A stretch of 64,000 nt of DNA from Owenia fusiformis (lineage: Eukaryota), in assembly GCA_903813345.2 (NCBI GenBank), contig CAIIXF020000001.1:25420001-25484000 (forward strand). The letters run 5' to 3'. Numbering within the stretch: position 1 is the stretch's first letter; each line of letters begins with the position of its first letter. Made by a program: the position numbers and the translations under genes. This document shows, piece after piece, positions 35,820 through 64,000 of this stretch. The notes beneath the pieces were generated by a model, which saw nothing but the letters and a program-made list of their open reading frames with translations, ran no database searches and was not told where the DNA came from.

Positions 35820-36365
35820 TTACACATCATCGTCTATTGTATAATCTTCAATAGTATAATAATCCAAAGTAGTGTTTTCCGCAGTATTATCCAATTATAA
35901 AGGCTGAAATATGGCCAAAACAGTACCATTTAGTAACAATAATTGATTCATACATCATGATCAACTATCATATAATCTTCCACTATATAATCCAACGCAG
36001 TGTTTTCACTTTCCAAGGGCAAAGCAGTATTATCCGAATGAAGAGCATGAATATAGTACAATACGGCCAAAACAATGTCATTTAATCAAGTAACAGTTAT
36101 TGTTTTACACATCATGGTCAACTATTGCATAATCTTCCACTATTTAATCCGACGCAGTGTTTTCACTTTCCAAGGGCAAAGCAGTATTATCCGAATGAAG
36201 AGGCCTGAATATAGTACAATACGGCCAAAACAATGTCATTTAATCAAGTAACAGTTATTGTTTTACACATCATGGTCAACTATTGCATAATCTTCCACTA
36301 TATAATCCAACGTAGTGTTTTCACTTTCCCAAAGCGAAGCAGTATTATCCGATTGTAAAGGCTGA
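35820..36365 (-). repeat. Four tandem ~158-bp copies of the mucin C-terminal coding segment plus stop
   Basis: Stops at 36263, 36105, 35948 and 35820, each preceded by ...EDYxI(V)D(H/D)DV. Confidence 0.88.
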
Positions 36366-39300
36366 GAGAATGGTAAATCCACCGAAGATGGGAACTGAAC
36401 AGCGAATGGACCAGTTGGAATAGGATATGATTCTGGATTCCATTCAATGGATGAGTCTGATGATTCTGTGGTACTCTCGTATTCAGAATATCCACCACTT
36501 TCTTCCCAACTGTGATAAAAATTTTCGTATATTATAACTTCTTCATTTTCGTGCTTTCGTCTCTTTCTGATAAAGAATATACATACACCACAGCATAATG
36601 ATGCAAATATGAAAATGCCACCACCGGCTGCAACTGTACTTGTTATAACGACACCAGCAAATTCATCCGTTATACCAGCATCAGGTGAATCAGGAAACTC
36701 TACTGCTGTAGTAGTATTAGCAGCTGTTGTCGGCACACTAGAAGTTATATCAAGAACTGTTGTCGTATTCACTGTACTTCCATTATCAACTGTATTTGAA
36801 GCGTCGGCCGTTGTAGTATTTACCACTGTAGTAGTGTCAGTAACTGTTGATTTAGTATCAGCGGTAGTTGCATCAGCAGCTGTTGTTGTAGCATCAGCTG
36901 CAGTTGTGTCAGCCACTGTAGTTGTAGCATCAGCTGCTGTAGTATCTGCCGTAGTTGGGTCAGCCACTGAAGTTGTGTCAGCTACTGTTGTTTTAACATC
37001 AGCCGTTGTTGCATCAGCAACTGTTTTTGTAGCATCAGCTGTAGTTGTGTCAGCCACTGTACTTGTAGCATCAGCTGCAGTAGTATCTGCCGTAGTTGCG
37101 TCAGCCATTGTAGTTGTGTCAACAACTGTTGTTGTAACATCAGCTGTAGTGGTGTCAGCCACTGTACTTGTAGCATCAGCTGCTGTAGTATCTGCCGTAG
37201 TTGCGTCAGCCACTGAAGTTGTGTCAGCTACTGTTGTTTTAACATCAGCCGTTGTTGCATCAGCAACTGTTGTTGTAGCATCAGCTGTAGTTGTGTCAGC
37301 CACTGTACTTGTAGCATCAGCTGCTGTATTATCTGCCGTAGTTGCGTCAGCCACTGTAATTGTGGCAGCTACTGTTGTTGTAACATCAGCCGTTGTTGCA
37401 TCAGCAACGGTTGTTGTAGCATCAGCTGTAGTTGTGTCAGCCACTGTAGTTGTAGCATCAGCTGCTGTATTATCTGCCGTAGTTGCATCAGCCACTGTAG
37501 TTGTGGCAGCTACTGTTGTTGTAACATCAGCCATTGTTGCATCAGCAACTGTTGTTGTAGCATCAGCTGTAGTTGTGTCAGCCTCTGTAGTTGTAGCATC
37601 AGCTGCTGTATTATCTGCCGTAGTTGCGTCAGCCACTGTAGTTGTGTCAGCAACTGTTGTTGTAACATCAGCCGTTGTTGCATCAGCAACGGTTGTTGTA
37701 GCATCAGCTGTAGTTGTGTCAGCCACTGTACTTGTAGCATCAGCTGCTGTAGTATCTGCCGTAGTTGCGTCAGCCACTGTAGTTGTGTCAGCAACTGCTG
37801 TTGTAACATCAGCCGTTGTTGCATCAGCAACTGTAGTTGTAGCATCAGCTGCAGTTGTGTCAGCCACTGTAGTTGTAGCATCAGCTGCTGTAGTATCTGC
37901 CGTAGTTGCGTCAGCCACTGTAGTTGTGTCAGCTACTGTTGTTGTAACATCAGCCGTTGTTGCATCAGCAACTGTTGTTGTAGCATCAGCTGTAGTTGTG
38001 TCAGCCACTGTACTTGTAGCATCAGCTGCTGTAGTATCTGCCGTAGTTGCGTCAGCCACTGTAGTTGTGTCAGCAACTGCTGTTGTAACATCAGCCGTTG
38101 TTGCATCAGCAACTGTTGCTGTAGCATCAGCTGCAGTTGTGTCAGCCACTGTAGTTGTAGCATCAGCTGCTGTAGTATCTGCCGTAGTTGCGTCAGCCAC
38201 TGTAGTTGTGTCAGCTACTGTTGTTGTAACATCAGCCGTTGTTGCATCAGCAACTGTTGTTGTAGCATCAGCTGTAGTTGTGTCAGCCACTGTAGTTCTA
38301 GCATCAGCTGCTGTAGTATCTGCCGTAGTTGCGTCAGCCACTGTAGTTGTGTCAACAACTGCTGTTGTAACATCAGCCGTTGTTGCATCAGCAACTGTTG
38401 TTGTAGCATCAGCTGCTGTAGTATCTGCTGTAGTTGTGTCAGCTACTGTTGTTGTAACATCAGCCGTTGTTGCATCAGCAACTGTTGTTGTAGCATCAGT
38501 TGTAGTTGTGTCAGCCACTGTACTTGTAGCATCAGCTGCTGCTGTAGTATCTGCCGTGGTTGCGTCAGCCACTGTAGTTGTGTCAGCAACTGCTGTTGTA
38601 ACATCAGCCGTTGTTGCATCAGCTACTGTACTTGTAACATCAGCCGTTGTTGCGTCAGCCACTGTAGTTGTGTCAGCAACTGCTGTTGTAACATCAGCCG
38701 TTGTTGCATCAGCAACTGTTGTTGTAGCATCAGCTGTAGTTGTGTCAGCCACTGTACTTGTAGCATCAGCTGCTGTAGTATCTGCCGTAGTTGCATCAGC
38801 CACTGTAGTGGTGTCAGCAACTGCTGTTGTAACATCAGCCGTTGTTGCATCAGCAACTGTTGTTTTAGCATCAGCTGCAGTTGTGTCAGCCACTGTAGTT
38901 GAAGCATCAGCTGCTGTAGTATCTGCCGTAGTTGCGTCAGCCACTGTAGTCGTGTCAGCTACTGTTGTTGTAACATCAGCCGTTGTTGCATCAGCAACTG
39001 TTGCTGTAGCATCAGCTGTAGTTGTGTCAGCCACTGTACTTGTAACATCAGCTGCTGTAGTATCTGCCGTTGTTGTGTCAGCCACTGTAGTTGTGTCAGC
39101 AACTGCTGTTGTAACATCAGCCGTTGTTGCATCAGCAACTGTTGTTGTAGCATCAGCTGCAGTTGTGTCAGCCACTGTAGTTGTGTCAGCTACTTTTGTT
39201 GTAACATCAGCCGTTGTTGCATCAGCAACTGTTGTTGTAGCATCAGCTGCAGTTGTGTCAGCCACTGTAGTTGTAGCATCAGCTGCTGTAGTATCTGCCG

Positions 39301-42300
39301 TAGTTGCGTCAGCCACTGTAGTGGTGTCAGCAACTGATGTTGTAACATCAGCCGTTGTTGCATCAGCAACTGTTGTTGTAGCATCAGCTGCAGTTGTGTC
39401 AGCCACTGTAGTTGTAGCATCAGCTGCTGTAGTATCTGCCGTAGATGCGTCAGCCACTGTAGTTGTGTCAGCAACTGCTGTTGTAACATCAGCCGTAGTT
39501 GTGTCTGCAGTTGTAGCATCAGCTGCAGTTGTGTCAGCCACTGTAGTTGTAGCATCAGCTGCTGTAGTATCTTCGGTTGTTGCGTCAGCCACTGTAGTTG
39601 TGTCAGCTACTGTTGTTGTAACATCAGCCGTTGTTGCATCAGCAACTGTTGTTGTAGCATCAGCTACAGTTGTGTCAGCCACTGAAGTTGTAGCATCAGC
39701 TGCTGTAGTATCTGCCGTAGTTGCGTCAGCCACTGTAGTTGTGTCAGCTACTGTTGTTGTAACATCAGCCGTTGTTGCATCAGCAACTGTTGTTGTAGCA
39801 TCAGCTGTAGTTGTGTCAGCCACTGTACTTGTAGCATCAGCTGCTGTAGTATCTGCCGTAGTTGCGTCAGCCACTGTTGTTGTAGCATCAGCTGTAGTTG
39901 TGTCAGCCACTGTAGTTGTGTCAGCTACTGTTGTTGTAACATCAGCCGTTGTTGCATCAGCAACTGTTGTTGTAGCATCAGCTACAGTTGTGTCAGCCAC
40001 TGAAGTTGTAGCATCAGCTGCTGTAGTATCTGCCGTAGTTGCGTCAGCCACTGTAGTTGTGTCAGCTACTGTTGTTGTAACATCAGCCGTTGTTGCATCA
40101 GCAACTGTTGTTGTAGCATCAGCTGTAGTTGTGTCAGCCACTGTACTTGTAGCATCAGCTGCTGTAGTATCTGCCGTTGTTGCATCAGCAACTGTTGTTG
40201 TAGCATCAGCTGTAGTTGTGTCAGCCACTGTAGTTGTAGCATCAGCTGCTGTAGTATCTGCCGTAGTTGCGTCAGCCACTGTAGTTGTGTCAGGTACTGT
40301 TGTTGTAACATCAGCCTTTGTTGGATCAGCAACTGTTGTTGTAGCATCAGCTGTAGTTGTGTCAGCCACTGTACTTGTAGCATCAGCTGCTGTAGTATCT
40401 GCCGTAGTTGCGTCAGCCACTGTAGCTGTGTCAGCAACTGCTGTTGTAACATCAGCCGTTGTTGCATCAGCAACTGTTGTTGTAGCATCAGCTGCAGTTG
40501 TGTCAGCCACTGTAGTTGTAGCATCAGCTGCTGTAGTATCTGCCGTAGTTGCGTCAGCCACTGTAGTTGTGTCAGGTACTGTTGTTGTTACATCAGCCGT
40601 TGTTGCATCAGCAACTGTTGTTGCAGCATCAGCTGTAGTTGTGTCAGCCACTGTACTTGTAGCATCAGCTGCTGTAGTATCTGCCGTAGTTGCGTCAGCC
40701 ACTGTAGTTGTGTCAGCAACTGCTGTTGTAACATCAGCCGTTGTTGCATCAGCAACTGTTGTTGTAGCATCAGCTGCAGTTGTGTCAGCCACTGTGGTTG
40801 TAGCATCAGCTGCTGTAGTATCTGCCGTAGTTGCGTCAGCCACTGTAGTTGTGTCAGCTACTGTTGTTGTAACATCAGCCGTTGTTGCATCAGCAACTGT
40901 TGTTGTAGCATCAGCTGTAGTTGTGTCAGCCACTGTACTTGTAGCATCAGCTGCTGTAGTATCTGCCGTAGTTGCGTCAGCCACTGAAGTTGTGTCAGCA
41001 ACTGCTGTTGTAACATCAGCCGTTGTTGCATCAGCAACTGTTGTTGTAGCATCAGCTGCAGTTGCGTCAGCCACTGTAGTTGTAGCATCAGCTGCTGTAG
41101 TATCTGCCGTAGTTGCGTCAGCCACTGTAGTTGTAGCATCAGCTGTAGTTGTGTCAGCCACTGTACTTGTAGCATCAGCTGCTGTAGTATCTGCCGTAGT
41201 TGCGTCAGCCACTGTAGTTGTGTCAGCAACTGCTGTTGTAACATCAGCCGTTGTTGCATCAGCAACTGTAGTTGTAGCATCAGCTGCTGTAGTATCAGCC
41301 GTTGTTGCATCAGCAACTGTTGTTGTAGCATCAGCTGTAGTTGTGTCAGCCACTGTACTTGTAGCATCAGCTGCTGTAGTATCTGCCGTAGTTGCGTCAG
41401 CCACTGTAGTTGTGTCAGCAACTGCTGTTGTAACATCAGCCGTTGTTGCATCAGCAACTGTTGTTGTAGCATCAGCTGCAGTTGTGTCAGCCACTGTGGT
41501 TGTAGCATCAGCTGCTGTAGTATCTGCCGTAGTTGCGTCAGCCACTGTAGTTGTGTCAGCTACTGTTGTTGTAACATCAGCCGTTGTTGCATCAGCAACT
41601 GTTGTTGTAGCATCAGCTGTAGTTGTGTCAGCCACTGTACTTGTAGCATCAGCTGCTGTAGTATCTGCCGTAGTTGCGTCAGCCACTGAAGTTGTGTCAG
41701 CAACTGCTGTTGTAACATCAGCCGTTGTTGCATCAGCAACTGTTGTTGTAGCATCAGCTGCAGTTGCGTCAGCCACTGTAGTTGTAGCATCAGCTGCTGT
41801 AGTATCTGCCGTAGTTGCGTCAGCCACTGTAGTTGTATCAGCTACTGTTGTTGTAACATGAGCCGTTGTTGCATCAGAAACTGCTGTTGTAGCATCAGCT
41901 GTAGTTGTGTCAGCCACTGTAGTTGTAGCATCAGCTGCTGTAGTATCTGCCGTAGTTGCGTCAGCCACTGTAGTTGTGTCAGCTACTGTTGTTGTAACAT
42001 CAGCCGTTGTTGCATCAGCAACTGTTGTTGTAGCATCAGCTGTAGTTGTGTCAGCCACTGTACTTGTAGCATCAGCTGCTGTAGTATCTGCCGTAGTTGC
42101 GTCAGCCACTGTAGTTGTGTCAGCAACTGCTGTTGTAACATCAGCCGTTGTTGCTGTAGTATCTGCCGTAGTTGCGTCAGCCACTGTAGTTGTGTCAGCT
42201 ACTGTTGTTGTAACATCAGCCGTTGTTGCATCAGCAACTGTTGTTGTAGCATCAGCTGTAGTTGTGTCAGCCACTGTAGTTGTAGCATCAGCTGCTGTAG

Positions 42301-45300
42301 TATCTGCCGTAGTTGCGTCAGCCACTGTAGTTGTGTCAGCTACTGTTGTTGTAACATCAGCCTTTGTTGCATCAGCAACTGTTATTGTAGCATCAGCTGT
42401 AGTTGTGTCAGCCACTGTACTTGTAGCATCAGCTGTTGTAGTATCTGCCGTAGTTGCGTCAGCCACTGTAGTTGTGTCAGCAACTGCTGTTGTAACATCA
42501 GCCGTTGTTGCATCAGCAACTGTTGTTGTAGCATCAGCTGCAGTTGTGTCAGCCACTGTAGTTGTAGCATCAGCTGCTGTAGTATCTTCGGTTGTTGCGT
42601 CAGCCACTGTAGTTGTGTCAGCAACTGCTGTTGTAACATCAGCCGTTGTTGCATCAGCAACTGTTGTTGTAGCATCAGCTGCAGTTGTGTCAGCCACTGT
42701 AGTTGTAGCATCAGCTGCTGTAGTATCTGCCGTAGTTGCGTCAGCCACTGTAGTTGTGTCAGCAACTGCTGTTGTAACATCAGCCGTTGTTGCATCAGCA
42801 ACTGTTGTTGTAGCATCAGCTGCAGTTGTGTCAGCCACTGTAGTTGTAGCATCAGCTGCTGTAGTATCTGCCGTAGTTGCGTCAGCCACTGTAGTTGTGT
42901 CAGCAACTGCTGTTGTAACATCAACCGTTGTTGCATCAGCAACTGTTGTTGTAGCATCAGCTGCACTTGTGTCAGCCACTGTAGTTGTAGCATCAGCTGC
43001 TGTAGTATCTGCCGTAGTTGCGTCAGCCACTGTAGTTGTGTCAGCTACTGCTGTTGTAACATCAGTTGCGTCAGCCACTGTAGTTGTGTCAGCAACTGCT
43101 GTTGTAACATCAGCCGTTGTTGCATCAGCAACTGTTGTTGTAGCATCAGCTGCAGTTGTGTCAGCCACTGTAGTTGTAGCATCAGCTGCTGTAGTATCTG
43201 CCGTAGTTGCGTCAGCCACTGTACTTGTGTCAGCTACTGTTGTTGTTACATCAGCCGTTGTTGCATCAGCAACTGTTGTTGTAGCATCAGCTGTAGTTGT
43301 GTCAGCCACTGTACTTGTAGCATCAGCTGCTGTAGTATCTGCCGTAGTTGCGTCAGCCACTGTAGTTGTGTCAGCAACTGCTGTTGTAACATCAGCCGTT
43401 GTTGCATCAGCAACTGTTGTTGTACCATCAGCTGCAGTTGTGTCAGCCACTGTAGTTGTAGCATCAGCTGCTGTAGTATCTGCCGTAGTTGCGTCAGCCA
43501 CTGTAGTTGTGTCAGCTACCGTTGTTGTAACATCAGCCGTTGTTGCATCAGAAACTGTTGTTGTAGCATCAGCTGTAGTTGTGTCAGCCACTGTACTTGT
43601 AGCATCAGCTGCTGTAGCATCTGCCGTAGTTGCGTCAGCCACTGTAGTTGTGTCAACAACTGCTGTTTTAACATCAGCCGTTGATGCATCAGCAACTGTT
43701 GTTGTAGCATCAGCTGCAGTTGTGTCAGCCACTGTAGTTGTAGCATCAGCTGCTGTAGTATCTGCCGTAGTTGCGTCAGCCACTGTAGTTGTGTCAGCTA
43801 CTGTTGTTGTAACATCAGCCGTTGTTGCATCAGCAACTGTTGTTGTAGCATCAGCTACAGTTGTGTCAGCCACTGAAGTTGTAGCATCAGCTGCTGTAGT
43901 ATCTGCCGTAGTTGCGTCAGCCACTGTAGTTGTGTCAGCAACTGCTGTTGTAACATCAGCCGTTGTTGCATCAGCAACTGTTGTTGTAGCATCAGCTGCA
44001 GTTGTGTCAGCCACTGTGGTTGTAGCATCAGCTGCTGTAGTATCTGCCGTAGTTGCGTCAGCCACTGTAGTTGTGTCAGCTACCGTTAGTGTAACATCAG
44101 CCGTTGTTGCATCAGCAACTGTTGTTGTAGCATCAGCTGCAGTTGTGTCAGCCACTGTAGTTGTAGCATCAGCTGCTGTAGTATCTGCCGTAGTTGCGTC
44201 AGCCACTGTAGTTGTGTCAGCTACTGTTGTTGTAACATCAGCCGTTGTTGCATCAGCAACTGTTGTTGTAGTATCAGCTGTAGTTGTGTCAGCCACTGTA
44301 CTTGTAGCATCAGCTGCTGTAGTATCTGCCGTAGTTGCGTCAGCCACTGTAGTTGTGTCAGCAACTGCTGTTGTAACATCAGCCGTTGTTGCATCAGCAA
44401 CTGTTGTTGTAGCATCAGCTGCATTTGTGTCAGCCACTGTAGTTGTAGCATCAGCTGCTGTAGTATCTGCCGTAGTTGCGTCAGCCACTGTAGTTGTGTC
44501 AGCTACTGTTGTTGTAACATCAGCCGCTGTTGCATCAGCAACTGTTGTTGTAGCATCAGCTGTAGTTGTGTCAGCCACTGTAGTTGTAGCATCAGCTGCT
44601 GTAGTATCTGCCGTAGTTGCGTCAGCCACTGTAGTTGTGTCAGCTACCGTTAGTGTAACATCAGCCGTTGTTGCATCAGCAACTGTTGTTGTAGCATCAG
44701 CTGCAGCTGTGTCAGCCACTGTAGTTGTAGCATCAGCTGCTGAAGTATCTGCCGTAGTTGCGTCAGCCACTGTAGTTGTGTCAGAAACTGCTGTTGTAAC
44801 ATCAGCCGTTGTTGCATCAGCAACTGTTGTTGTAGCATCAGCTGCACTTGTGTCAGCCACTGTAGTTGTAGCATCAGCTGCTGTAGTATCTGCCGTAGTT
44901 GCGTCAGCCACTGTAGTTGTGTCAGCTACTGTTGTTGTAACATCAGCCGTTGTTGCATCAGCAACTGTTGTTATAGCATCAGCTGCAGTTGTGTCAGCCA
45001 CTGTAGTTGTAGCATCAGCTGCTGTAGTATCTGCCGTAGTTGCGTCAGCCACTGTAGTTGTGTCAGCAACTGCTGTTGTAACATCAGCCGTTGTTGCATC
45101 AGCAACTGTTGTTGTAGCATCAGCTGCAGTTGTGTCAGCCACTGTAGTTGTTGCATCAGCTGCTGTAGTATCTGCCGTAGTTGCGTCAGCCACTGTAGTT
45201 GTGTCAGCAACTGCTGTTGTAACATCAGCCGTTGTTGCATCAGCAACTGTTGTTGTAGCATCAGCTGCAGTTGTGTCAGCCACTGTAGTTGTAGCATCAG

Positions 45301-57300: not shown

Positions 57301-60300
57301 CTGTTGTTGTAGCATCAGCTGTAGTTGTGTCAGCCACTGTACTTGTAGCATCAGCTGCTGTAGTATCTGCCGTAGTTGCGTCAGCCACTGTAGTTGTGTC
57401 AGCTACTGTTAGTGTAACATCAGCCGTTGTTGCATCAGCAACTGTTGTTGTAGCATCAGCTGCAGTTGTGTAAGCCACTGTAGTTGTAGCATCAGCTGCT
57501 GTAGTATCTGCCGTAGTTGCGTCAGCCACTGTAGTTGTGTCAGCTACTGTTAGTGTAACATCAGCCGTTGTTGCATCAGCAACTGTTGTTGTAGCATCAG
57601 CTGCAGTTGTGTCAGCCACTGTAGTTGTAGCATCAGCTGCTGTAGTATCTGCCGTATTTGCGTCAGCCACTGTAGTTGTGTCAGCAACTGCTGTTGTAAC
57701 ATCAGCCGTTGTTGCATCAGCAACTGTTGTTGTAGCATCAGCTGCAGTTGTGTCAGCCACTGTAGTTGTAGCATCAGCTGCTGTAGTATCTGCCGTAGTT
57801 GCGTCAGCCACTGTAGTTGTGTCAGCTACTGTTGTTGTAACATCAGCCGCTGTTGCATCAGCAACTGTTGTTGTAGCATCAGCTGCAGTTGTGTCAGCCA
57901 CTGTAGTTGTAGCATCAGCTGCTGTAGTATCTGCCGTAGTTGCGTCAGCCACTGTAGTTGTGTCAGCTACCGTTAGTGTAACATCAGCCGTTGTTGCATC
58001 AGCAACTGTTGTTGTAGCATCAGCTGCAGTTGTGTCAGCCACTGTAGTTGTAACATCAACCGTTGTTGCATCAGCAACTGTTGCTTTAGCATCAGCTGTA
58101 GTTGTGGCAGCCACTGTACTTGTAGCATCAGCTACTGTAGTATCTGCCGTAGTTGCGTCAGCCACTGTAGTTGTGTCAGTAACTGCTGTTGTAACATCAG
58201 CCGTTGTTGCATCAGCAACTGTTGTTGTAACATCAGCCGTTAGTGCATCAGCAACTGTTGTTGTAGCATCAGCTGTAGTTGTGTCAGCCACTGTACTTGT
58301 AGCATCAGCTGCTGTAGTATCTGCCGTAGTTGCGTCAGCCACTGTAGTTGTGTCAGCAACTGCTGTTGTAACATCAGCCGTTGTTGCATCAGCAACTGTT
58401 GTTGTAGCATCAGCTGCAGTTGTGTCAGCCACTGTAGTTGTAGCATCAGCTGCTGTAGTATCTGCCGTAGTTGCGTCAGCCACTGTAGTTGTGTCAGCAA
58501 CTGCTGTTGTAACATCAGCCGTTGTTGCATCAGCAACTGTTGTTGTAGCATCAGCTGCAGTTGTGTCAGCCACTGTAGTTGTAGCATCAGCTGCTGTAGT
58601 ATCTGCCGTAGTTGCGTCAGCCACTGTAGTTGTGTCAGCAACTGCTGTTGTAACATCAGCCGTTGTTGCATCAGCAACTGTTGTTGTAGCATCAGCTGCA
58701 GTTGTGTCAGCCACTGTAGTTGTAGCATCAGCTGCTGTAGTATCTGCCGTAGTTGCGTCAGCCACTGTAGTTGTGTCAGCTACTGTTGTTGTAACATCAG
58801 CCGTTGTTGCATCAGCAACTGTTGTTGTAGCATCAGCTGTAGTTGTGTCAGCCACTGTACTTGTAGCATCAGCTGCTGTAGTATCTGCCGTAATTGCGTC
58901 AGCCACTGTAGTTGTGTCAGCAACTGCTGTTGTAACATCAGCCGTTGTTGCATCAGCAACTGTTGTTGTAGCATCAGCTGCAGTTGTGTCAGCCACTGTA
59001 GTTGTAGCATCAGCTGCTGTAGTATCTGCCGTAGTTGCGTCAGCCACTGTAGTTGTGTCAGCTACTGTTGTTGTAACATCAGCCGTTGTAACATCAGCAA
59101 CTGTTGTTGTAGCATCAGCTGTAGTTGTGTCAGCCACTGTATTTGTAGCATCAGCTGCTGTAGTATCTGCCGTAGTTGCATCAGCCACTGTAGTTGTGTC
59201 AGCAACTGCTGTTGTAACATCAGCCGTTGTTGCATCAGCAAGTGTTGTTGTAGCATCAGCTGCAGTTGTGTCAGCCACTGTAGTTGTAGCATCAGCTGCT
59301 GTAGTATCTTCGGTAGTTGCGTCAGCCACTGTAGTTGTGTCAGCTACTGTTGTTGTAACATCAGCCGTTGTTGCATCAGCAACTGTTGTTGTAGCATCAG
59401 CTGCAGTTGTGTCAGCCACTGAAGTTGTAGAATCAGCTGCTGTAGTATCTGCCGTAGTTGCGTCAGCCACTGTAGTTGTGTCAGCAACTGCTGTTGTAAC
59501 TTCAGCCGTTGTTGCATCAGCAACTGTTGTTGTAGCATCAGCTGCAGTTGTGTCAGCCACTGTAGTTGTAGCATCAGCTGCTGTAGTATCTGCCGTAGTT
59601 GCGTCAGCCACTGTAGTTGTGTCAGCAACTGCTGTTGTAACATCAGCCGTTGTTGCATCAGCAACTGTTGTAGCATCAGCTGCAGTTGTGTCAGCCACTG
59701 TAGTTGTAGCATCAGCTGCTGTAGTATCTGCCGTAGTTGCGTCAGCCACTGTAGTTGTGTCAGCAACTGCTGTTGTAACATCAGCCGTTGTTGCATCAGC
59801 AACTGTTGTTGTAGCATCAGCTGCAGTTGTGTCAGCCACTGTAGTTGTAGCATCAGCTGCTGTAGTATCTGCCGTAGTTGCGTCAGCCACTGTAGTTGTG
59901 TCAGCTACTGTTGTTGTAACATCAGCCGTTGTTGCATCAGCAACTGTTGTTGTAACATCAGCTGTAGTTGTGTCAGCCACTGTACTTGTAGCATCAGCTG
60001 CTGTAGTATCTGCCGTAGTTGCGTCAGCCACTGTAGTTGTGTCAGCAACTGCTGTTGTAACATCAGTCGTTGTTGCATCAGCATCTGTTGTTGTAGCATC
60101 AGCTGCAGTTGTGTCAGCCACTGTAGTTGTAGCATCAGCTGCTGTAGTATCTGCCGTAGTTGCGTCAGCCACTGTAGTTGTGTCAGCTACTGTTGTTGTA
60201 ACATCAGCCGTTGTTGCATCAGCAACTGTTGTTGTAGCATCAGCTGCAGTTGTGTCAGCCACTGTAGTTGTAGCATCAGCTGCTGTAGTATCTGCCGTAG

Positions 60301-63300
60301 TTGCGTCAGCCACTGTAGTTGTGTCAGCAACTGCTGTTGTAACATCAGCCGTTGTTGCATCAGCAACTGTTGTTGTAGCATCAGCTGCAGTTGTGTCAGC
60401 CACTGTAGTTGTAGCATCAGCTGCTGTAGTATCTGCCGTAGTTGCGTCAGCCACTGTAGTTGTGTCAGCTACTGCTGTTGTAACATCAGTTGCGTCAGCC
60501 ACTGTAGTTGTGTCAGCAACTGCTGTTGTAACATCAGCCGTTGTTGCATCAGCAACTGTTGTTTTAGCATCAGCTGTAGTTGTGTCAGCCACTGTACTTG
60601 TAGCATCAGCTGCTGTAGTATCTGCCGTAGTTGCGTCAGCCACTGTAGTTGTGTCAGCAACTGCTGTTGTAACATCAGCCGTTGTTGCATCAGCAACTGT
60701 TGTTGTAGCATCAGCTGCAGTTGTGTCAGCCACTGTAGTTGTAGCATCAGCTGCTGTAGTATCTGCCGTAGTTGCGTCAGCCACTGTAGTTGTGTCAGCA
60801 ACTGCTGTTGTAACATCAGCCGTTGTTGCATCAGCAACTGTTGTTGTAGCATCAGCTGCAGTTGTGTCAGCCACTGTAGTTGTAGCATCAGCTGCTGTAG
60901 TATCTGCCGTAGTTGCGTCAGCCACTGTAGTTGTGTCAGCTACTGTTGTTGTAACATCAGCCGTTGTTGCATCAGCAACTGTTGTTTTAGCATCAGCTGT
61001 AGTTGTGTCAGCCACTGTACTTGTAGCATCAGCTGCTGTAGTATCTGCCTTAGTTGCGTCAGCCACTGTAGTTGTGTCAGTAACTGCTGTTGTAACATCA
61101 GCCGTTGTTGCATCAGCAACTGTTGTTGTAACATCAGCCGTTGTTGCATCAGCAACTGTTGTTGTAGCATCAGCTGTAGTTGTGTCAGCCACTGTACTTG
61201 TAGCATCAGCTGCTGTAGTATCTGCCGTAGTTGCGTCAGCCACTGTAGTTGTGTCAGCAACTGCTGTTGTAACATCAGCCGTTGTTGCATCAGCAACTGT
61301 TGTTGTAGCATCAGCTGCAGTTGTGTCAGCCACTGTAGTTGTAGCATCAGCTGCTGTAGTATCTGCCGTAGTTGCGTCAGCCACTGTAGTTGTGTCAGCT
61401 ACTGTTGTTGTAACATCAGCCGTTGTTGCATCAGCAACTGTTGTTGTAGCATCAGCTGTAGTTGTGTCAGCCACTGTACTTGTAGCATCAGCTGCTGTAG
61501 TATCTGCCATAGTTGCGTCAGCCACTGTAGTTGTGTCAGCAACTGCTGTTGTAACATCAGCCGTTGTTGCATCAGCAACTGTTGTTGTAGCATCAGCTGC
61601 AGTTGTGTCAGCCACTGTAGTTGTAGCATCAGCTGCTGTAGTATCTGCCGTAGTTGCGTCAGCCACTGTAGTTGTGTCAGCTACTGTTGTTGTAACATCA
61701 GTCGTTGTTGCATCAGCAACTGTTGTTGTAGCATCAGCTGCAGTTGTGTCAGCCACTGTAGTTGTAGCATCAGCTGCTGTAGTATCTGCCGTAGTTGCGT
61801 CAGCCACTGTAGTTGTGTCAGCAACTGCTGTTGTAACATCAGCCGTTGTTGCATCAGCAACTGTTGTTGTAGCATCAGCTGCAGTTGTGTCAGCCACTGT
61901 AGTTGTAGCATCAGCTGCTGTAGTATCTGCCGTAGTTGCGTCAGACACTGTAGTTGTGTCAGCAACTGCTGTTGTAACATCAGCCGTTGTTGCATCAGCA
62001 ACTGTTGTTGTAGCATCAGCTGCAGTTGTGTCAGCCACTGTAGTTGTAGCATCAGCTGCTGTAGTATCTGCCGTAGTTGCGTCAGCCACTGTAGTTGTGT
62101 CAGCTACTGTTGTTGTAACATCAGCCGCTGTTGCATCAGCAACTGTTGTTGTAGCATCAGCTGCAGTTGTGTAAGCCACTGTAGTTGTAGCATCAGCTGC
62201 TGTAGTATCTGCCGTAGTTGCGTCAGCCACTGTAGTTGTGTCAGCTACTGTTAGTGTAACATCAGCCGTTGTTGCATCAGCAACTGTTGTTGTAGCATCA
62301 GCTGCAGTTGTGTCTGCCACTGTAGTTGTAGCATCAGCTGCTGTAGTATCTGCCGTAGTTGCGTCAGCCACTGTAGTTGTGTCAGCAACTGCTGTTGTAA
62401 CATCAGCCGTTGTTGCATCAGCAACTGTTGTTGTAGCATCAGCTGCAGTTGTGTCAGCCACTATAGTTGTAGCATCAGCTGCTGTAGTATCTGCCGTAGT
62501 TGCGTCAGCCACTGTAGTTGTGTCAGCTACTGTTGTTGTAACATCAGCCGCTGTTGCATCAGCAACTGTTGTTGTAGCATCAGCTGCAGTTGTGTCAGCC
62601 ACTGTAGTTGTAGCATCAGCTGCTGTAGTATCTGCCGTAGTTGCGTCAGCCACTGTAGTTGTGTCAGCTACCGTTAGTGTAACATCAGCCGTTGTTGCAT
62701 CAGCAACTGTTGTTGTAGCATCAGCTGCAGTTGTGTCAGCCACTGTAGTTGTAACATCAGCCGTTGTTGCATCAGCAACTGTTGTTTTAGCATCAGCTGT
62801 AGTTGTGGCAACCACTGTACTTGTAGCATCAGCTACTGTAGTATATGCCGTAGTTGCGTCAGCCACTGTAGTTGTGTCAGTAACTGCTGTTGTAACATCA
62901 GCCGTTGTTGCATCAGCAACTGTTGTTGTAACATCAGCCGTTGTTGCATCAGCAACTGTTGTTGTAGCATCAGCTGTAGTTGTGTCAGCCACTGTACTTG
63001 TAGCATCAGCTGCTGTAGTATCCGCCGTAGTTGCGTCAGCCACTGTAGTTGTGTCAGCAACTGCTGTTGTAACATCAGCCGTTGTTGCATCAGCAACTGT
63101 TGTTGTAGCATCAGCTGCAGTTGTGTCAGCCACTGTAGTTGTAGCATCAGCTGCTGTAGTATCTGCCGTAGTTGCGTCAGCCACTGTAGTTGTGTCAGCA
63201 ACTGCTGTTGTAACATCAGCCGTTGTTGCATCAGCAACTGTTGTTGTAGCATCAGCTGCAGTTGTGTCAGCCACTGTAGTTGTAGCATCAGCTGCTGTAG

Positions 63301-64000
63301 TATCTGCCGTAGTTGCGTCAGCCACTGTAGTTGTGTCAGCTACTGTTGTTGTAACATCAGCCGTTGTTGCATCAGCAACTGTTGTTGTAGCATCAGCTGC
63401 AGTTGTGTCAGCCACTGAAGTTGTAGCATCAGCTGCTGTAGTATCTGCCGTAGTTGCGTCAGCCACTGTAGTTGTGTCAGCAACTGCTGTTGTAACATCA
63501 GCCGTTGTTGCATCAGCAACTGTTGTTGTAGCATCAGCTGCAGTTGTGTCAGCCACTGTAGTTGTAGCATCAGCTGCTGTAGTATCTGCCGTAGTTGCGT
63601 CAGCCACTGTAGTTGTGTCAGCAACTGCTGTTGTAACATCAGCCGTTGTTGCATCAGCAACTGTTGTAGCATCAGCTGCAGTTGTGTCAGCCACTGTAGT
63701 TGTAGCATCAGCTGCTGTAGTATCTGCCGTAGTTGCGTCAGCCACTGTAGTTGTGTCAGCAACTGCTGTTGTAACATCAGCCGTTGTTGCATCAGCAACT
63801 GTTGTTGTAGCATCAGCTGCAGTTGTGTCAGCCACTGTAGTTGTAGCATCAGCTGCTGTAGTATCTGCCGTAGTTGCGTCAGCCACTGTAGTTGTGTCAG
63901 CAACTGCTGTTGTAACATCAGCCGTTGTTGCATCAGCAACTGTTGTTGTAGCATCAGCTGCAGTTGTGTCAGCCACTGTAGTTGTAGCATCAGCTGCTGT
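36263..64000 (-). CDS. Giant type-I transmembrane mucin-like protein (Thr/Ala/Asp/Val repeats), partial, 5' end beyond the window
   Basis: Frame open from 64000 to the TAA at 36263 (the track's start at 63976 is an internal GTG); TM FAGVVITSTVAAGGGIFIFASLCCGVCIFFI (~36569-36661), stop-transfer RKRRK, ~100-aa tail. Confidence 0.9.
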   Translation of the reverse strand, partial: TAADATTTVADTTAADATTTVADATTADVTTAVADTTTVADATTADTTAADATTTVADTTAADATTTVADATTADVTTAVADTTTVADATTADTTAADATTTVADTTAADATTVADATTADVTTAVADTTTVADATTADTTAADATTTVADTTAADATTTVADATTADVTTAVADTTTVADATTADTTAADATTSVADTTAADATTTVADATTADVTTTVADTTTVADATTADTTAADATTTVADTTAADATTTVADATTADVTTAVADTTTVADATTADTTAADATTTVADTTAADATTTVADATTADVTTAVADTTTVADATTADTTAADATSTVADTTTADATTTVADATTADVTTTVADATTADVTTAVTDTTTVADATTAYTTVADATSTVVATTTADAKTTVADATTADVTTTVADTTAADATTTVADATTADVTLTVADTTTVADATTADTTAADATTTVADTTAADATTTVADATAADVTTTVADTTTVADATTADTTAADATTIVADTTAADATTTVADATTADVTTAVADTTTVADATTADTTAADATTTVADTTAADATTTVADATTADVTLTVADTTTVADATTADTTAADATTTVAYTTAADATTTVADATAADVTTTVADTTTVADATTADTTAADATTTVADTTAADATTTVADATTADVTTAVADTTTVSDATTADTTAADATTTVADTTAADATTTVADATTADVTTAVADTTTVADATTADTTAADATTTVADTTAADATTTVADATTTDVTTTVADTTTVADATTADTTAADATTTVADTTAADATTTVADATTADVTTAVADTTTVADATMADTTAADATSTVADTTTADATTTVADATTADVTTTVADTTTVADATTADTTAADATTTVADTTAADATTTVADATTADVTTAVADTTTVADATTADTTAADATSTVADTTTADATTTVADATTADVTTTVADATTADVTTAVTDTTTVADATKADTTAADATSTVADTTTADAKTTVADATTADVTTTVADTTTVADATTADTTAADATTTVADTTAADATTTVADATTADVTTAVADTTTVADATTADTTAADATTTVADTTAADATTTVADATTADVTTAVADTTTVADATTADTTAADATSTVADTTTADAKTTVADATTADVTTAVADTTTVADATDVTTAVADTTTVADATTADTTAADATTTVADTTAADATTTVADATTADVTTAVADTTTVADATTADTTAADATTTVADTTAADATTTVADATTADVTTTVADTTTVADATTADTTAADATTTVADTTAADATTTDADATTTDVTTAVADTTTVADATTADTTAADATSTVADTTTADVTTTVADATTADVTTTVADTTTVADATTADTTAADATTTVADTTAADATTTVADATTADVTTAVADTTTVADATTADTTAADATTTVADTTAADATTVADATTADVTTAVADTTTVADATTADTTAADATTTVADTTAADATTTVADATTAEVTTAVADTTTVADATTADTTAADSTTSVADTTAADATTTVADATTADVTTTVADTTTVADATTEDTTAADATTTVADTTAADATTTLADATTADVTTAVADTTTVADATTADTTAADATNTVADTTTADATTTVADVTTADVTTTVADTTTVADATTADTTAADATTTVADTTAADATTTVADATTADVTTAVADTTTVADAITADTTAADATSTVADTTTADATTTVADATTADVTTTVADTTTVADATTADTTAADATTTVADTTAADATTTVADATTADVTTAVADTTTVADATTADTTAADATTTVADTTAADATTTVADATTADVTTAVADTTTVADATTADTTAADATTTVADTTAADATTTVADATTADVTTAVADTTTVADATTADTTAADATSTVADTTTADATTTVADALTADVTTTVADATTADVTTAVTDTTTVADATTADTTVADATSTVAATTTADAKATVADATTVDVTTTVADTTAADATTTVADATTADVTLTVADTTTVADATTADTTAADATTTVADTTAADATTTVADATAADVTTTVADTTTVADATTADTTAADATTTVADTTAADATTTVADATTADVTTAVADTTTVADANTADTTAADATTTVADTTAADATTTVADATTADVTLTVADTTTVADATTADTTAADATTTVAYTTAADATTTVADATTADVTLTVADTTTVADATTADTTAADATSTVADTTTADATTTVADATTADVTTTVADATTADVTTAVTDTTTVADATTADTTVADATSTVAATTTADAKTTVADATTADVTTTVADTTAADATTTVGDATTADVTLTVADTTTVADATTADTTAADATTTVADTTAADATTTVADATAADVTTTVADTTTVADATAAAADATTTVADATTADVTLTVADTTTVADATTADTTAADATTTVANTTAADATTTVADATAADVTTTVADTTTVADATTADTTAADATTTVADTTAADATTTVADATTADVTTAVADTTTVSDATTADTTAADATTTVADTTAADATTTVADATTADVTTAVADTTTVADATTADTTAADATTTVADTTAADATTTVADATTTDDTTTVADTTTVADPTMADTTAADATTTVVDTTAADATTTVADATTADVTTAVADTTTVADATTADTTAAGATSTVADTTTADATTTVAGATTADVTTTVADTTTVADATTADTTAADATTTVADTTAADATTTVADATTADVTTAVADTTTVADATTADTTAADATTTVADTTAADATTVADATTADVTTAVADTTTVADATTVDTTAADATTTVADTTAADATTTVADATTADVTTAVADTTTVADATTADTTAADSTTSVADTTAADATTTVADATTADVTTTVADTTTVADATTADTTAADATTTVADTTAADATTTVADATTADVTTAVADTTTVADATTADTTAADATTTVADTTAADATTTVADATTADVTTAVTDTTTVADATTADTTAADATSTVADTTTADAKTTVADATTADVTTAVADTTTVADATDVTTAVADTTTVADATTADTTAADATSTVADTTAADATTTVADATTADVTTAVTDTTAVADTTTVADATTADTTAADATTTLADTTAADATTTVADATTADVTTTVADTTTVADATTEDTTAADATTTVADTTAADATTTVADATTADVTTAVADTTTVADATTADTTASDATNTVADTTTADATTTVADVTTADVTTTVADTTTVADATTADTTATDATTTVADTTAADATTTVADATTADVTTAVADTTTVADATTADTTAADATSTVADTTTADATTTVADATTADVTTTVADTTTVADATTADTTVADATSTVAATTTADAKTTVADATTADVTTTVADTTTVADATTADTTAADATSTVADTTAADATTTVADATTADVTTAVADTTTVADATTADTTAADATTTVADTTAADATTTVADATTADVTTTVADTTTVADATTEDTTAADATTTVADTTAADATTTVADATTADVTTAVADTTTVADATTADTTAADATNTVADTTTADATTTVADVTTADVTTTVADTTTVADATTADTTAADATTTVAYTTAADATTTVADATAADVTTTVADTTTVADATTADTTAADATITVADTTAADATTTVADATMADVTTAVADTTTVADATTADTTAADATSTVADTTTADATTTVADATTADVTTTVADTTTVADTTTADTTAADATTTVADTTAADVTTTVADATTADATTTVADVTTADATTTVADPTAADATTTVADATTADVTTTVADTTTVADATTEDTTAADATTKVADTTAADATTTVADATTADVTTAVADTTTVADATTADTTAADATNTVADTTTADATTTVADVTTADVTTTVADTTTVADATTADTTAADATTTVADTTAADATTTVADATTADVTTAVADTTTVADATTADTTAADATSTVADTTTADATTTVADATTADVTTTVADTTTVADAATADTTAADATTTVADTTAADATTTVADATTADVTTAVADTTTVADATDVTKAVADTTTVADATTADTTAADATTTVADTTAADATTTVADATTADVTTVVADTTTVADATTADTTVADATTTVADTTAADATTTVADATTADVTTAVADTTTVADATTADTTAADATTTVADTTAADATTTVADATTADVTTAVADTTTVADATTADTTAADATTTVADTTAADATTTVADATTADVTTTVADTTTVADATTADTTAADATTTVADTSAADATTTVADAITADVTTAVPDTTTVADATTADTSAADATTTVADTTAADATTTVADATTADVTLTVADTTTVADATTADTTAADATTTVADTTAADATTTVADATAADVRTTVADTTTVADATTADTTAADATTTVADPTAADATTTVADATTADVTTTVADTTTVADATTEDTTAADATSTVADTTTADAKTTVADATTADVTTAVADTTTVADATTADTTAADATTTVADTTAADATTTVADATTADVTTAVTDTTTVADATPADTTAADATSTVADTTTADAKTTVADATTADVTTAVADTTTVADATDVTTAVADTTTVADATTADTTAADATTTVADTTAADATTTVADATTADVTTAVTDTTTVADATTADTTAADATSTVADTTAADATTTVADATTADVTTAVADTTAVADTTTVADATTADTTAADATTTLADTTAADATTVADATTADVTTAVADTTTVADATTADTTAADATTTVADTTAADATTTVADATTADVTTAVADTTTVADATTADTTAADATTSVADTTAADATTTVADATTADVTTTVADTTTVADATTEDTTAADATTTVADTTAADATTTVADATTADVTTAVADTTTVADATTADTTASDATNTVADTTTADATTTVADVTTADVRTTVADTTTVADATTADTTAADATTTVAEPTAADATTTVADATTADVTTTVADTTTVADATTEDTTAADATTTVADTTAADATTTVADATTADVTTAVADTTTVADATTADTTAADATNTVADTTTADATTTVADVTTADVTTTVADTTTVADATTADTTAADATTTVADTTAADATTTVADATTADVTTAVADTTTVADATTADTTAADATSTVADTTTADATTTVADATTADVTTTVADTTTVADAATADTTAADATTTVADTTAADATTTVADATTADVTTAVADTTTVADATDVTKAVADTTTVADATTADTTAADATTTVADTTAADATTTVADATTADVTTAVADTTTVADATTADTTVADATTTVADTTAADATTTVADATTADVTTAVADTTTVADATTADTTAADATTTVADTTAADATTTVADATTADVTTAVADTTTVADATTADTTAADATTTVADTTAADATTTVADATTADVTTTVADTTTVADATTADTTAADATTTVADTSAADATTTVADATTADVTTAVSDTTTVADATTADTSAADATTTVADATAADVRTTVADTTTVADATTADTTAADATTTVADPTAADATTTVADATTADVTTTVADTTTVADATTEDTTAADATSTVADTTTADATTTVADATTADVTTTVADTTTVADAATADTTAADATTTVADTTAADATTTVADATTADVTTAVADTTTVADATDVTKAVADTTTVADATTADTAAADATTTVADTTAADATTTVADATTADVTTAVADTTTVADATTADTTVADATTTVADTTAADATTTVADATTADVTTAVADTTTVADATTADTTAADATTTVADTTAADATTTVADATTADVTTAVADTTTVADATTADTTAADATTTVADTTAADATTTVADATTADVTTTVADTTTVADATTADTTAADATTTVADTSAADATTTVADATTADVTTAVSDTTTVADATTADTSAADATTTVADTAAADATTTVADATTADVTLTVADTTTVADATTADTTTADATTTVADTTAADATTTVADATAADVRTTVADTTTVADATTADTTAADATTTVADPTAADATTTVADATTADVTTTVADTTTVADATTEDTTAADATTTVADTTAADATTTVADATTADVKTAVADTTTVADATTADTTAADATNTVADTTTADATTTVSDVTTADVTTTVADTTTVADATTADITAADATSTVADTTTADATTTVADATTADVTTTVADTTTVADAATADTTAADATTTVADTTAADATTTVADATTADTTAAGATTTVADTTAADATTTVVDATAADVTTAVADTTTVADATTADTTAADATTTVADTTAADATTTVADATTADVTTAVADTTTVADATTADTTAADATTTVADTTAADATTTVADATTADVTTAVADTTTVADATTADTTAADATTTVADTTAADAITTVADATTADVTTTVADTTTVADATTADTTAADATTTVADTSAADATTTVADATTADVTTAVSDTTTVADATTADTSAADATTTVADTAAADATTTVADATTADVTLTVADTTTVADATTADTTAADATTTVADTTTADATTTVADATAADVTTTVADTTTVADATTADTTAADATTTVADTNAADATTTVADATTADVTTAVADTTTVADATTADTTAADATSTVADTTTADTTTTVADATTADVTTTVADTTTVADATTADTTAADATTTVADTTAADATTTVADATTADVTLTVADTTTVADATTADTTAADATTTVADTTAADATTTVADATTADVTTAVADTTTVADATTADTTAADATTSVADTTVADATTTVADATTADVTTTVADTTTVADATTADTTAADATTTVADTTAADATTTVADASTADVKTAVVDTTTVADATTADATAADATSTVADTTTADATTTVSDATTADVTTTVADTTTVADATTADTTAADATTTVADTTAADGTTTVADATTADVTTAVADTTTVADATTADTTAADATSTVADTTTADATTTVADATTADVTTTVADTSTVADATTADTTAADATTTVADTTAADATTTVADATTADVTTAVADTTTVADATDVTTAVADTTTVADATTADTTAADATTTVADTSAADATTTVADATTVDVTTAVADTTTVADATTADTTAADATTTVADTTAADATTTVADATTADVTTAVADTTTVADATTADTTAADATTTVADTTAADATTTVADATTADVTTAVADTTTVADATTEDTTAADATTTVADTTAADATTTVADATTADVTTAVADTTTVADATTADTTTADATSTVADTTTADATITVADATKADVTTTVADTTTVADATTADTTAADATTTVADTTTADATTTVADATTADVTTTVADTTTVADATTADTTATTADVTTAVADTTTVADATTADTTAADATSTVADTTTADATTTVADATTADVTTTVADTTTVADATTADTTAADATTTVADTTTADATTAVSDATTAHVTTTVADTTTVADATTADTTAADATTTVADATAADATTTVADATTADVTTAVADTTSVADATTADTTAADATSTVADTTTADATTTVADATTADVTTTVADTTTVADATTADTTAADATTTVADTTAADATTTVADATTADVTTAVADTTTVADATTADTTAADATSTVADTTTADATTTVADATTADTTAADATTTVADATTADVTTAVADTTTVADATTADTTAADATSTVADTTTADATTTVADATTADTTAADATTTVADATAADATTTVADATTADVTTAVADTTSVADATTADTTAADATSTVADTTTADATTTVADATTADVTTTVADTTTVADATTADTTAADATTTVADTTAADATTTVADATTADVTTAVADTTTVADATTADTTAADATSTVADTTTADAATTVADATTADVTTTVPDTTTVADATTADTTAADATTTVADTTAADATTTVADATTADVTTAVADTATVADATTADTTAADATSTVADTTTADATTTVADPTKADVTTTVPDTTTVADATTADTTAADATTTVADTTTADATTTVADATTADTTAADATSTVADTTTADATTTVADATTADVTTTVADTTTVADATTADTTAADATTSVADTTVADATTTVADATTADVTTTVADTTTVADTTTADATTTVADATTADTTAADATSTVADTTTADATTTVADATTADVTTTVADTTTVADATTADTTAADATTSVADTTVADATTTVADATTADVTTTVADTTTVADATTEDTTAADATTTVADTTAADATTADTTTADVTTAVADTTTVADASTADTTAADATTTVADTTAADATTTVADATTADVTTSVADTTTVADATTADTTAADATTTVADTTAADATTTVADATTADVTTKVADTTTVADTTAADATTTVADATTADVTTAVADTTTVADTTTADTTAADVTSTVADTTTADATATVADATTADVTTTVADTTTVADATTADTTAADASTTVADTTAADAKTTVADATTADVTTAVADTTTVADATTADTTAADATSTVADTTTADATTTVADATTADVTTAVADTTTVADATTADVTSTVADATTADVTTAVADTTTVADATTADTTAAADATSTVADTTTTDATTTVADATTADVTTTVADTTTADTTAADATTTVADATTADVTTAVVDTTTVADATTADTTAADARTTVADTTTADATTTVADATTADVTTTVADTTTVADATTADTTAADATTTVADTTAADATATVADATTADVTTAVADTTTVADATTADTTAADATSTVADTTTADATTTVADATTADVTTTVADTTTVADATTADTTAADATTTVADTTAADATTTVADATTADVTTAVADTTTVADATTADTTAADATSTVADTTTADATTTVADATTADVTTTVADTTTVADATTADNTAADATTTEADTTTADATTTVADATMADVTTTVAATTTVADATTADNTAADATTTVADTTTADATTTVADATTADVTTTVAATITVADATTADNTAADATSTVADTTTADATTTVADATTADVKTTVADTTSVADATTADTTAADATSTVADTTTADVTTTVVDTTTMADATTADTTAADATSTVADTTTADATKTVADATTADVKTTVADTTSVADPTTADTTAADATTTVADTTAADATTTAADATTADTKSTVTDTTTVVNTTTADASNTVDNGSTVNTTTVLDITSSVPTTAANTTTAVEFPDSPDAGITDEFAGVVITSTVAAGGGIFIFASLCCGVCIFFIRKRRKHENEEVIIYENFYHSWEESGGYSEYESTTESSDSSIEWNPESYPIPTGPFAVQFPSSVDLPFSQPLQSDNTASLWESENTTLDYIVEDYAIVDHDV
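36850..64000 (-). repeat. Coding minisatellite, 141-bp/47-aa unit ADTTA-ADATTTV-ADATT-ADVTTAV-ADTTTV-ADATT-ADTTA-ADATTTV
   Basis: Visible periodicity; alternative-frame ORFs recur at multiples of 141 (e.g. 48598/48880). Confidence 0.97.

Follow-up and report, generated by a model that had tools for sequence, protein, structure and literature searches.

In SEA-type tethered mucins (MUC1, MUC3, MUC12, MUC13, MUC16 and MUC17), an SEA domain lies between the repeats and the membrane, and in MUC4-type tethered mucins the repeats are followed by NIDO-AMOP-vWD and EGF modules. Tethered mucin-like proteins devoid of SEA and EGF domains are not unusual. In MUC21, MUC22, CD43 and PSGL-1, the mucin-like repeat runs nearly straight into a stalk, a single transmembrane (TM) helix and a tail, and no SEA or EGF domain is found. 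O-glycosylated mucin chains extend by about 0.25 nm per residue. For mucin-like genes, expression confined to certain tissues is normal.

Mucins are defined by function rather than by descent and arise repeatedly via the gain of exonic repeats; some are 'orphan' mucins having no orthology to other mucins, and lineage-specific ones exist (PMC9417175). High Ser+Thr thresholds (>20-25%) are used for mucin repeats (PMC2515642, PMC9417175), and one modern definition relies on O-glycosite density and not on proline (PMC9209528). The longest human MUC4 VNTR allele measures 27,843 bp, human MUC12, which has the largest human coding exon, encodes proteins of 4,677 to 23,080 aa, and in about half of the human mucin VNTRs the repeats at the boundaries show greater degeneracy (PMC13345508, a medRxiv preprint). 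Around mapped O-glycosites, the main sequence preference is for Pro at +3 (29.7%) and -1 (23.4%), and GalNAc-T1 has a pocket for the proline at +3 (PMC11402288, PMC10901373); Ser, Thr, Ala and Glu are also common there (PMC11402288). In a Drosophila survey, which screened for S+T >25% and a minimum of four 10-aa repeats, proteins with S/T-rich tandem repeats lacking proline were set apart from mucins as a 'mucin-related' (Mur) class; in the same analysis, Drosophila appeared to be devoid of transmembrane mucins (PMC2515642). Finally, the coral skeletal acidic proteins SAARP1/2 contain 20-21% Asp, and one of them has a TM segment (PMC4043741).

We analysed a stretch of 64,000 nucleotides of Owenia fusiformis DNA, called the window below. 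Its minus strand carries, at 36263..64000, a single open frame of 9,245 codons followed by a TAA stop codon. Since the 5' end of the frame lies beyond the window edge at base 64000, 9,245 codons is a lower bound, and the N-terminus, with any signal peptide, falls outside the window. The initial annotation had reported a single open frame of more than 27.7 kb and at least 9,245 codons; we found the same frame and could add the strand, minus, which had been missing. The visible polypeptide comprises at least 9,245 aa, with a mass of about 875 kDa and a net charge of about -1,520. The visible ectodomain accounts for 9,115 of these residues, 3,758 of them Ser or Thr, and has a net charge of -1,521. 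The G+C content is 0.48 across the giant ORF as compared to 0.30-0.39 over the first 36 kb of the window. The features of the window are listed in Table 1.

Table 1. Features located in the window, in order of position.
Feature	Position	Strand	Basis or remark
EGF exon-like ORF	1228-1512	-	Pfam
EGF exon-like ORF, Pfam score identical to that of the 1228-1512 copy	3434-3718	-	Pfam
Sushi exon	5007-5603	-	Pfam
Weak PAN match	10079-10399	-	Pfam
LINE (non-LTR retrotransposon), ORFs of 574 and 642 aa	26091-29766	+	Exo_endo_phos, RVT_1, zf-RVT (Pfam)
158-bp tandem repeat, 2.7 copies, 92% matches	35932..36352	-	Tandem Repeats Finder and copy alignment
ATTAAA, candidate variant polyadenylation signal (motif match)	36239..36244	-	19 nt past the stop
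TAA stop codon of the giant ORF	36263..36265	-	
Cytoplasmic tail, 101 aa, net charge -16	36266..36568	-	Translation
Predicted single TM helix, ~29 residues	36569..36655	-	Kyte-Doolittle 19-residue maximum 2.32
Juxtamembrane stalk, 56 aa, Thr/Asn-rich, four N-x-S/T sequons, no Cys	36656..36822	-	Translation
Tandem array, T/A/D/V ectodomain	36823..64000	-	Tandem Repeats Finder; continues to the window edge

Tandem Repeats Finder described the array as 192.8 copies of a period of 141 nt (47 aa) with 85% matches and 3% indels, alongside higher-order periods of 282 and 423. Its composition is extremely simple: T 40.3%, A 29.7%, D 16.9%, V 11.1%, S 0.93% and P 0.12%. In the 47-aa unit, T, A, D and V together make up 97.9% of the residues, which bears out the earlier description of a repeat built almost only from these four residues and poor in Pro and Ser. 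Proline occurs 11 times among 9,006 array residues, and the array is therefore not proline-rich in the sense of a PTS mucin domain. Thr and Ser make up 41.2% of the array over about 193 repeats, well above the Ser+Thr threshold (>20-25%) for a mucin domain. Among the same 9,006 residues there are no Cys, four Tyr, one His and five Gly, showing that the array contains no hidden frameshift patches. Pfam, run on 1,000 array residues, recognized no family.

The array is regular at several scales. Successive A-D-V anchors are spaced by exactly 47 codons in 139 of 196 cases, the remainder being of other whole-codon lengths. When the array was cut after each Asp, 1,525 sub-units were obtained, of which 1,498 have lengths of 5 (742), 6 (198) or 7 residues (558), and a cycle of sub-unit lengths 5-7-5-7-5-7-6-5 recurs about 146-152 times. 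The Asp residues are always single and preceded by Ala, with no poly-Asp runs, and clusters of 2-3 Thr are set apart by an Ala-Asp each 5-7 residues, as had been noticed from the sequence at the outset. The window contains 92 occurrences of one 30-mer taken from the unit, every one on the minus strand. Comparison of the 139 exact-length units with their consensus showed differences at 432 of 19,599 positions (2.2%), 18 of the 139 units being identical to the consensus. The units adjoining the TM segment are more degenerate, with 4.4 differences per 141 nt as compared to about 2.5-3 elsewhere.

The last 186 codons of the frame (36266-36823, minus strand) are unique sequence of 558 nt, with a G+C content of 0.39. 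They encode the stalk, the predicted TM helix and the tail. A C-C-x-x-C cluster is located near the cytoplasmic end of the predicted helix. The tail begins with a basic stop-transfer cluster, RKRRKH, then becomes acidic and rich in Ser, Glu and Tyr, and ends with ...DHDV. The hydrophobic maximum of 2.32 followed by RKRRKH corresponds to what is expected of a type I single-pass protein. The position of the four sequons on the outer, N-terminal side together with the positive-inside rule would give the same orientation. AlphaFold2, run on the last 329 residues as a single sequence, yielded a mean pLDDT of 36.4. The sole helix of the model spans residues 213-233 and corresponds to the C-terminal half of the predicted TM segment plus the basic cluster; the stalk was modelled without secondary structure (pLDDT <50). 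The model would fit a disordered chain with one membrane helix, a single-sequence model being weak evidence. We also considered whether the 12-residue sub-periodicity might reflect a folded beta-solenoid or an antifreeze-like structure, and rejected this, pLDDT values being 31-44 over the array part of the same single-sequence, hence weak, model.

Pfam recognized no family, SEA and EGF included, in the last 212 aa. There is indeed no SEA domain separating the repeats from the membrane, only 56 Cys-free residues, modelled as disordered, being available there, and the NIDO-AMOP-vWD and EGF modules that could follow the repeats are absent from the same 212 aa. Translation and the Pfam search thus agree with the earlier statement that the TM helix and the tail lie in the frame of the array, with no membrane-proximal SEA or EGF domain. 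More generally, the giant, Thr-rich, acidic, Pro- and Ser-poor transmembrane architecture proposed by the initial annotation fits a predicted type I protein, with its TM helix, its RKRRKH cluster and its sequons outside.

The codons of the array, ACN, GCN, GAY and GTN for T, A, D and V, are such that no stop is reachable by one substitution, and the unmutated consensus unit is stop-free in four of the six frames. Neutral simulations were performed by placing random substitutions on 193 consensus copies (100 runs per divergence level). The simulated sense frame was stop-free in 88 of 100 runs at 2.2% divergence, in 43 at 5% and in 9 at 10%. Because the T/A/D/V codons are one step away from no stop and the frame stayed open in 88 of 100 simulations, stop-free length is weak coding evidence. 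In the real array, one antisense frame shows only 4 stops in 27 kb. The plus strand, at 36609-63998, displays antisense ORFs of 1,750, 3,783, 1,383, 1,545 and >587 aa that read V/A/S/T and have no unique ends; these antisense ORFs are by-products of the unit composition. In the array, indels comprise either entire sub-units or single codons, and homopolymer runs of at least 3 nt number just 44 in its 27 kb. As a consequence, one-base slippage is mechanically rare and frame-keeping can be mechanical.

The differences among the 139 exact-length units look neutral. They are distributed over codon positions 1, 2 and 3 as 187, 127 and 118, that is with no third-position excess. The ratio of synonymous to nonsynonymous differences is 108:303, or 26% synonymous as compared to 29.6% expected under neutrality, and is 12:44 for singleton differences. 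Across all columns of these 139 units, no sign of purifying selection was detected. Nonsynonymous differences amount to 1.2% in Asp columns and 0.4% in Val columns as compared to 4.9% in Thr and 7.6% in Ala columns, and A-to-T plus T-to-A exchanges represent 138 of the 303. These figures give a hint that the periodic Asp and Val residues are constrained, the distinct events being few. The observed/expected CpG ratio, 0.37 in the array and 0.80 in the flanks, reflects the unit composition and was left unused. It had been put forward that every indel in the array keeps the frame. This is true as a description, as the whole-codon spacings show; as a mark of selection it fails, frame-keeping being explicable mechanically. 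Nor does the length of the ORF argue for selection, since neutral simulations leave the frame open so often and the copy differences look neutral.

The unique end behaves otherwise. None of 20,000 shuffles of its 558 nt left the 186 codons open, and only 1.2% of the 186-codon windows are open in the non-array 36 kb, which include the LINE ORFs of 574 and 642 aa. The unique end continues the sole fully open frame of the array and carries canonical signals of type I topology. This is a real argument, and strong evidence, that the exon is coding now or was until very recently. Any loss of function would have to be very recent, because the 186-codon end has remained in AT-rich DNA free of stops and frameshifts. 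For genome scans this calls for caution: a stop-free ACN/GCN/GAY/GTN frame of 27 kb is no proof of coding, and it is the 560 nt of the unique end that are informative.

We then turn to the array as DNA. Within it, 25 exact 800-mers are repeated and no exact repeat reaches 1,200 nt. Internal duplications occur at offsets of 3,495, 1,281, 702 and 5,469 nt, all multiples of 3. The variants form an ordered higher-order pattern and the copies are distinguishable. Part of 35400-38400 is present in 20 public runs of one organism, from six studies, and seven of these 20 contain at least half of the sampled words of the region; no RNA run was listed among the matching runs. One public run, X4, carries the guess label 'RNA?'. 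It covers the intergenic flanks evenly, at about 35-89, and for this reason it behaves as DNA and is uninformative on expression. An X4 contig of 403 nt spans 36494-36896, from the TM segment into the array, with 0 differences; the TM/array junction is therefore not peculiar to the assembly.

Word depth in X4 is about 35-134 in unique bins. In the tail it is 38.7-44.9 as compared to 35-47 in the flanks, showing that the tail is single-copy. In five array bins (36775-37400), the summed word depths are 3,734, 50,852, 9,273, 180,789 and 39,367, whereas about 193 copies at a depth of about 40 predict at most about 7,700; summed word depths are not copy numbers. Three of the five bins thus reach 5-23 times the depth predicted from about 193 copies. 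This is a hint that the genome carries several-fold more of the repeat than the window does, as a longer array or at other loci. Because these three bins are so deep while the tail is single-copy, the window could be the tail end of a far larger coding array, encoding a membrane protein of several tens of thousands of residues made of proline-free poly-Thr punctuated by Asp, an idea we hold to be improbable. Were it true, the frame would be among the longest animal ORFs and would represent a new class of tethered polyanionic surface polymers, charged through the peptide itself and not through sialic acid or sulfate.

The array could also have been over-expanded or mis-joined by the assembler. 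Long near-identical tandem repeats are error-prone and the window ends inside the array; we nevertheless consider such an artefact very improbable. Set against it are the scarcity of long exact repeats and the order of the variants, an X4 word depth far above the need of 27 kb, the junction found in the X4 contig and the seven runs that contain at least half of the sampled words. The initial annotation had kept open the case of a much shorter array in the reads. The X4 depth lies above, and not below, what 27 kb would require, and the copies can be told apart, so that over-expansion of the array by the assembler is unlikely.

Downstream of the stop codon, the 158-bp repeat duplicates the last ~29 codons of the giant ORF together with the beginning of the 3' flank. 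Its copies further downstream retain pseudo-ends of the form ...EDY.IVDHDV-stop, and the ATTAAA motif recurs in them. At 35800-36352 (minus strand) a fourth 158-bp copy, partial and more diverged, can be distinguished, each copy having ...EDY.I.D.DV-stop and ATTAAA. These duplicated ORF ends may be candidate alternative 3' ends. Rfam returned 0 matches. A bacterial promoter/terminator scan of the 3' flank was disregarded as meaningless for a eukaryote.

Three RNA-seq runs were mapped to 33500-37400, using 11.0-12.7 million reads each, which corresponds to about 6, 6 and 12% of the run. In all three, depth is zero over 33762-37167, that is over the 3' flank, the tail, the TM segment, the stalk and the first array units. 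A depth of 0.7-2.2, or about 1-3 reads per run, appears at 37168-37400, a site where words of the whole array pile up. The first mates are all on the plus strand; with the usual stranded chemistry, these few reads would fit minus-strand RNA. The libraries look stranded, as judged from depths of 8.7 and 0.8 on the two strands at the repeat element at 33500-33630. No other place shows steady RNA-seq depth in the three runs; at this element it is 7-12, with a strong strand bias. Most of the reads found there are 95-99% alike and continue into unlike sequence, which makes the signal look like that of a transcribed dispersed repeat, not of the locus.

Overall, the giant gene is close to silent in the three samples (6-12% of each run sampled). 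As to transcription across the array, the absence of which the initial annotation had named as a refutation, the three runs gave zero reads on the unique 3' end and only about 1-3 reads each on array sequence. This outcome weakens the reading as a mucin gene without refuting it.

In the remainder of the window, the LINE is interrupted by one frameshift or stop, because its RT domain is divided between its two ORFs. The two EGF ORFs lie 2,206 nt apart and have identical scores, pointing to a recent tandem duplication of about 2.2 kb. The EGF, Sushi and weak PAN matches suggest an extracellular multi-domain gene that is separate from the giant ORF and lies downstream of it; the EGF and Sushi exons, at least 30 kb downstream of the stop and beyond the LINE, are taken as another gene.

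Relatives were searched for with both parts of the protein. A word-index search of longer proteins with the TM segment plus tail (165 residues) gave no score among 995 candidates. An exhaustive phmmer search with the tail against 1.84 billion representative proteins found no true homolog. Its one match, the bacterial repeat protein P0003, was rejected as spurious, the same 25-38-residue stretch being matched seven times. Against the PDB, the best match of the tail had E = 0.84, which reveals no relative, and in JGI metagenome contigs 188 pattern matches to the tail gave 0 confirmed. In the ESM Atlas, the tail neighbours are tails of small single-pass glycoproteins (MUC1 fragment, TMEM154, opalin, syndecan), at no more than 0.85; such model-based neighbours of the tail and the repeat (up to 0.86, low recognition) are only leads.

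With 300 residues of the repeat as query, proteins of 165-2,000 aa gave compositional matches only. These were P0004, with A-T-A-A-D pentapeptides, P0006, and the bird model P0005, labelled 'LOW QUALITY PROTEIN', which contains a translated minisatellite. The latter consists of about 380 residues of translated T/V/G/D/A minisatellite fused to an AIR-synthase-type enzyme, a case of repeat DNA annotated as coding. In the metagenome contigs, the 30-mer of the unit found no exact match (0). The suggestion of a possibly undescribed family is in line with these protein, PDB and metagenome searches, none of which yielded a homolog of the tail or of the repeat, and the giant gene is probably an orphan, specific to its lineage.

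The reading that we favor is that of a giant 3'-terminal exon belonging to an orphan gene for a type I membrane protein, with a mucin-like, Pro-free, acidic repeat ectodomain; we regard the chances that it is right as evenly balanced. The ectodomain would be intrinsically disordered, with about 193 visible copies of the 47-aa unit, and a short N-glycosylatable stalk, one TM helix and an acidic Ser/Tyr-rich tail would complete the protein. The array would have arisen, and would stay homogeneous, by unequal exchange of sub-units and of multi-kb blocks, like mucin VNTR exons. If made and O-glycosylated on its ~3,700 Thr/Ser, the product would build a polyanionic brush on the micrometre scale at the cell surface and would be a functional analogue of tethered mucins or sialomucins that is free of proline and rich in Asp. 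The analysis shows the ORF, the make-up of the repeat, the topology signals of the TM segment and tail and, within the searches run, the lack of homologs; transcription, translation, glycosylation, extension and function are inferred, and a tethered polyanionic glycan brush is plausible. The brush length of about 2 micrometres is only arithmetic, obtained by multiplying 9,115 visible residues by 0.25 nm. Dense glycosylation of a Pro-free, Asp-punctuated repeat should not be assumed, because GalNAc-transferases favor Pro at +3 and -1.

The same DNA could be a runaway minisatellite, in which a repeat exon of modest size, once part of a membrane-protein gene, would have expanded into a young satellite-like array, the gene being silent, dying or never translated and its frame only passively open, since no single step turns the unit into a stop and exchanges involve entire sub-units. 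We find this possible but rather doubtful. It would explain why the simulations leave the frame open at the observed divergence, why the copies differ in a neutral-looking way and why one antisense frame is almost free of stops. The low divergence, with many units identical to the consensus, the missing RNA reads on the unique 3' end in three runs sampled at 6-12% and the X4 word depth of 3,700-181,000 on the array as compared to about 40 on unique sequence, which is not a copy number, point in the same direction, and the bird model P0005 illustrates how translated minisatellites enter gene models. What it explains poorly is the unique end, intact over 186 codons in AT-rich DNA and single-copy by depth, as well as the Asp and Val columns, which look more constrained than the Thr and Ala columns. 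The tissue-restricted expression normal for mucin-like genes also speaks against it.

A real protein could alternatively act through its peptide chemistry, the spaced Asp binding Ca2+, other cations, mineral or matrix, or the Thr being phosphorylated. Within the unit only Val is better kept than Asp, the ~1,520 visible Asp represent a fraction, 16.9%, that comes near the 20-21% given for SAARP1/2 (PMC4043741), and the repeat has no Pro to guide GalNAc-transferases (PMC10901373). But Asp is always single and follows Ala, with no poly-Asp runs, 40% of clustered Thr is the classic O-glycan acceptor pattern, and Ser, Thr, Ala and Glu are reported as common around mapped O-glycosites (PMC11402288). 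We consider this peptide-based function unlikely.

If expressed, the giant type I membrane protein would represent a tethered mucin-like polymer of independent evolutionary origin. Lacking Pro and nearly lacking Ser, it would break the 'PTS' rule, and it carries a fixed negative charge each 5-7 residues. It would offer a natural test of whether dense O-glycosylation and chain stiffness need proline, and of the origin of mucin-like genes from exonic repeats outside mammals.

In its architecture, with the repeat followed by a stalk, a single predicted TM helix and a tail in the absence of SEA or EGF domains, the giant ORF resembles MUC21, MUC22, CD43 and PSGL-1. It differs from them in being tens of times larger and Pro-free, and in having its acidity in the peptide rather than in sialic acid; the phmmer search with the tail in 1.84 billion representatives found no homology to proteins of this type. 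Like human MUC4, MUC12 and MUC16, it has a huge in-frame Thr-rich repeat exon, after which come a TM helix and a short tail. Unlike these three, it has no membrane-proximal SEA, NIDO/AMOP/vWD or EGF domain and no sequence similarity to them. Unlike human tethered mucins, it has no PTS sequence, the repeat containing 0.12% Pro and 0.93% Ser together with 16.9% Asp.

With acidic skeletal and shell matrix proteins such as coral SAARP1/2, the giant ORF shares a high Asp content and a low pI. The coral proteins differ from it in having Asp-rich blocks and a length of a few hundred residues (PMC4043741), and they bear no similarity to the unit. The coral 'threonine-rich protein' was rejected as a relative, its repeats, TEAP-T-T, being different and Pro-containing in the descriptions given (PMC4043741, PMC4890752). 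The departure from the PTS pattern, which the initial annotation had pointed out, has a counterpart in the Drosophila proteins whose Pro-less S/T repeats are already termed 'mucin-related' (PMC2515642). The giant ORF lies above the screening thresholds used for this Mur class (PMC2515642), a descriptive class and no homology family. It is distinguished from the Mur proteins by its predicted TM anchor.

Likewise, the lack of SEA and EGF domains and an exon of >27 kb, also pointed out there, are known in tethered mucin-like proteins, and MUC4 and MUC12 match the size. The giant ORF falls in the size range of these two mucins (VNTR exon >27 kb), and its terminal repeats are more degenerate than the internal ones, as in about half of the human mucin VNTRs (PMC13345508). 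Overall, the composition, with 0.12% Pro and 17% Asp, is unusual, and the size and the architecture have precedents.
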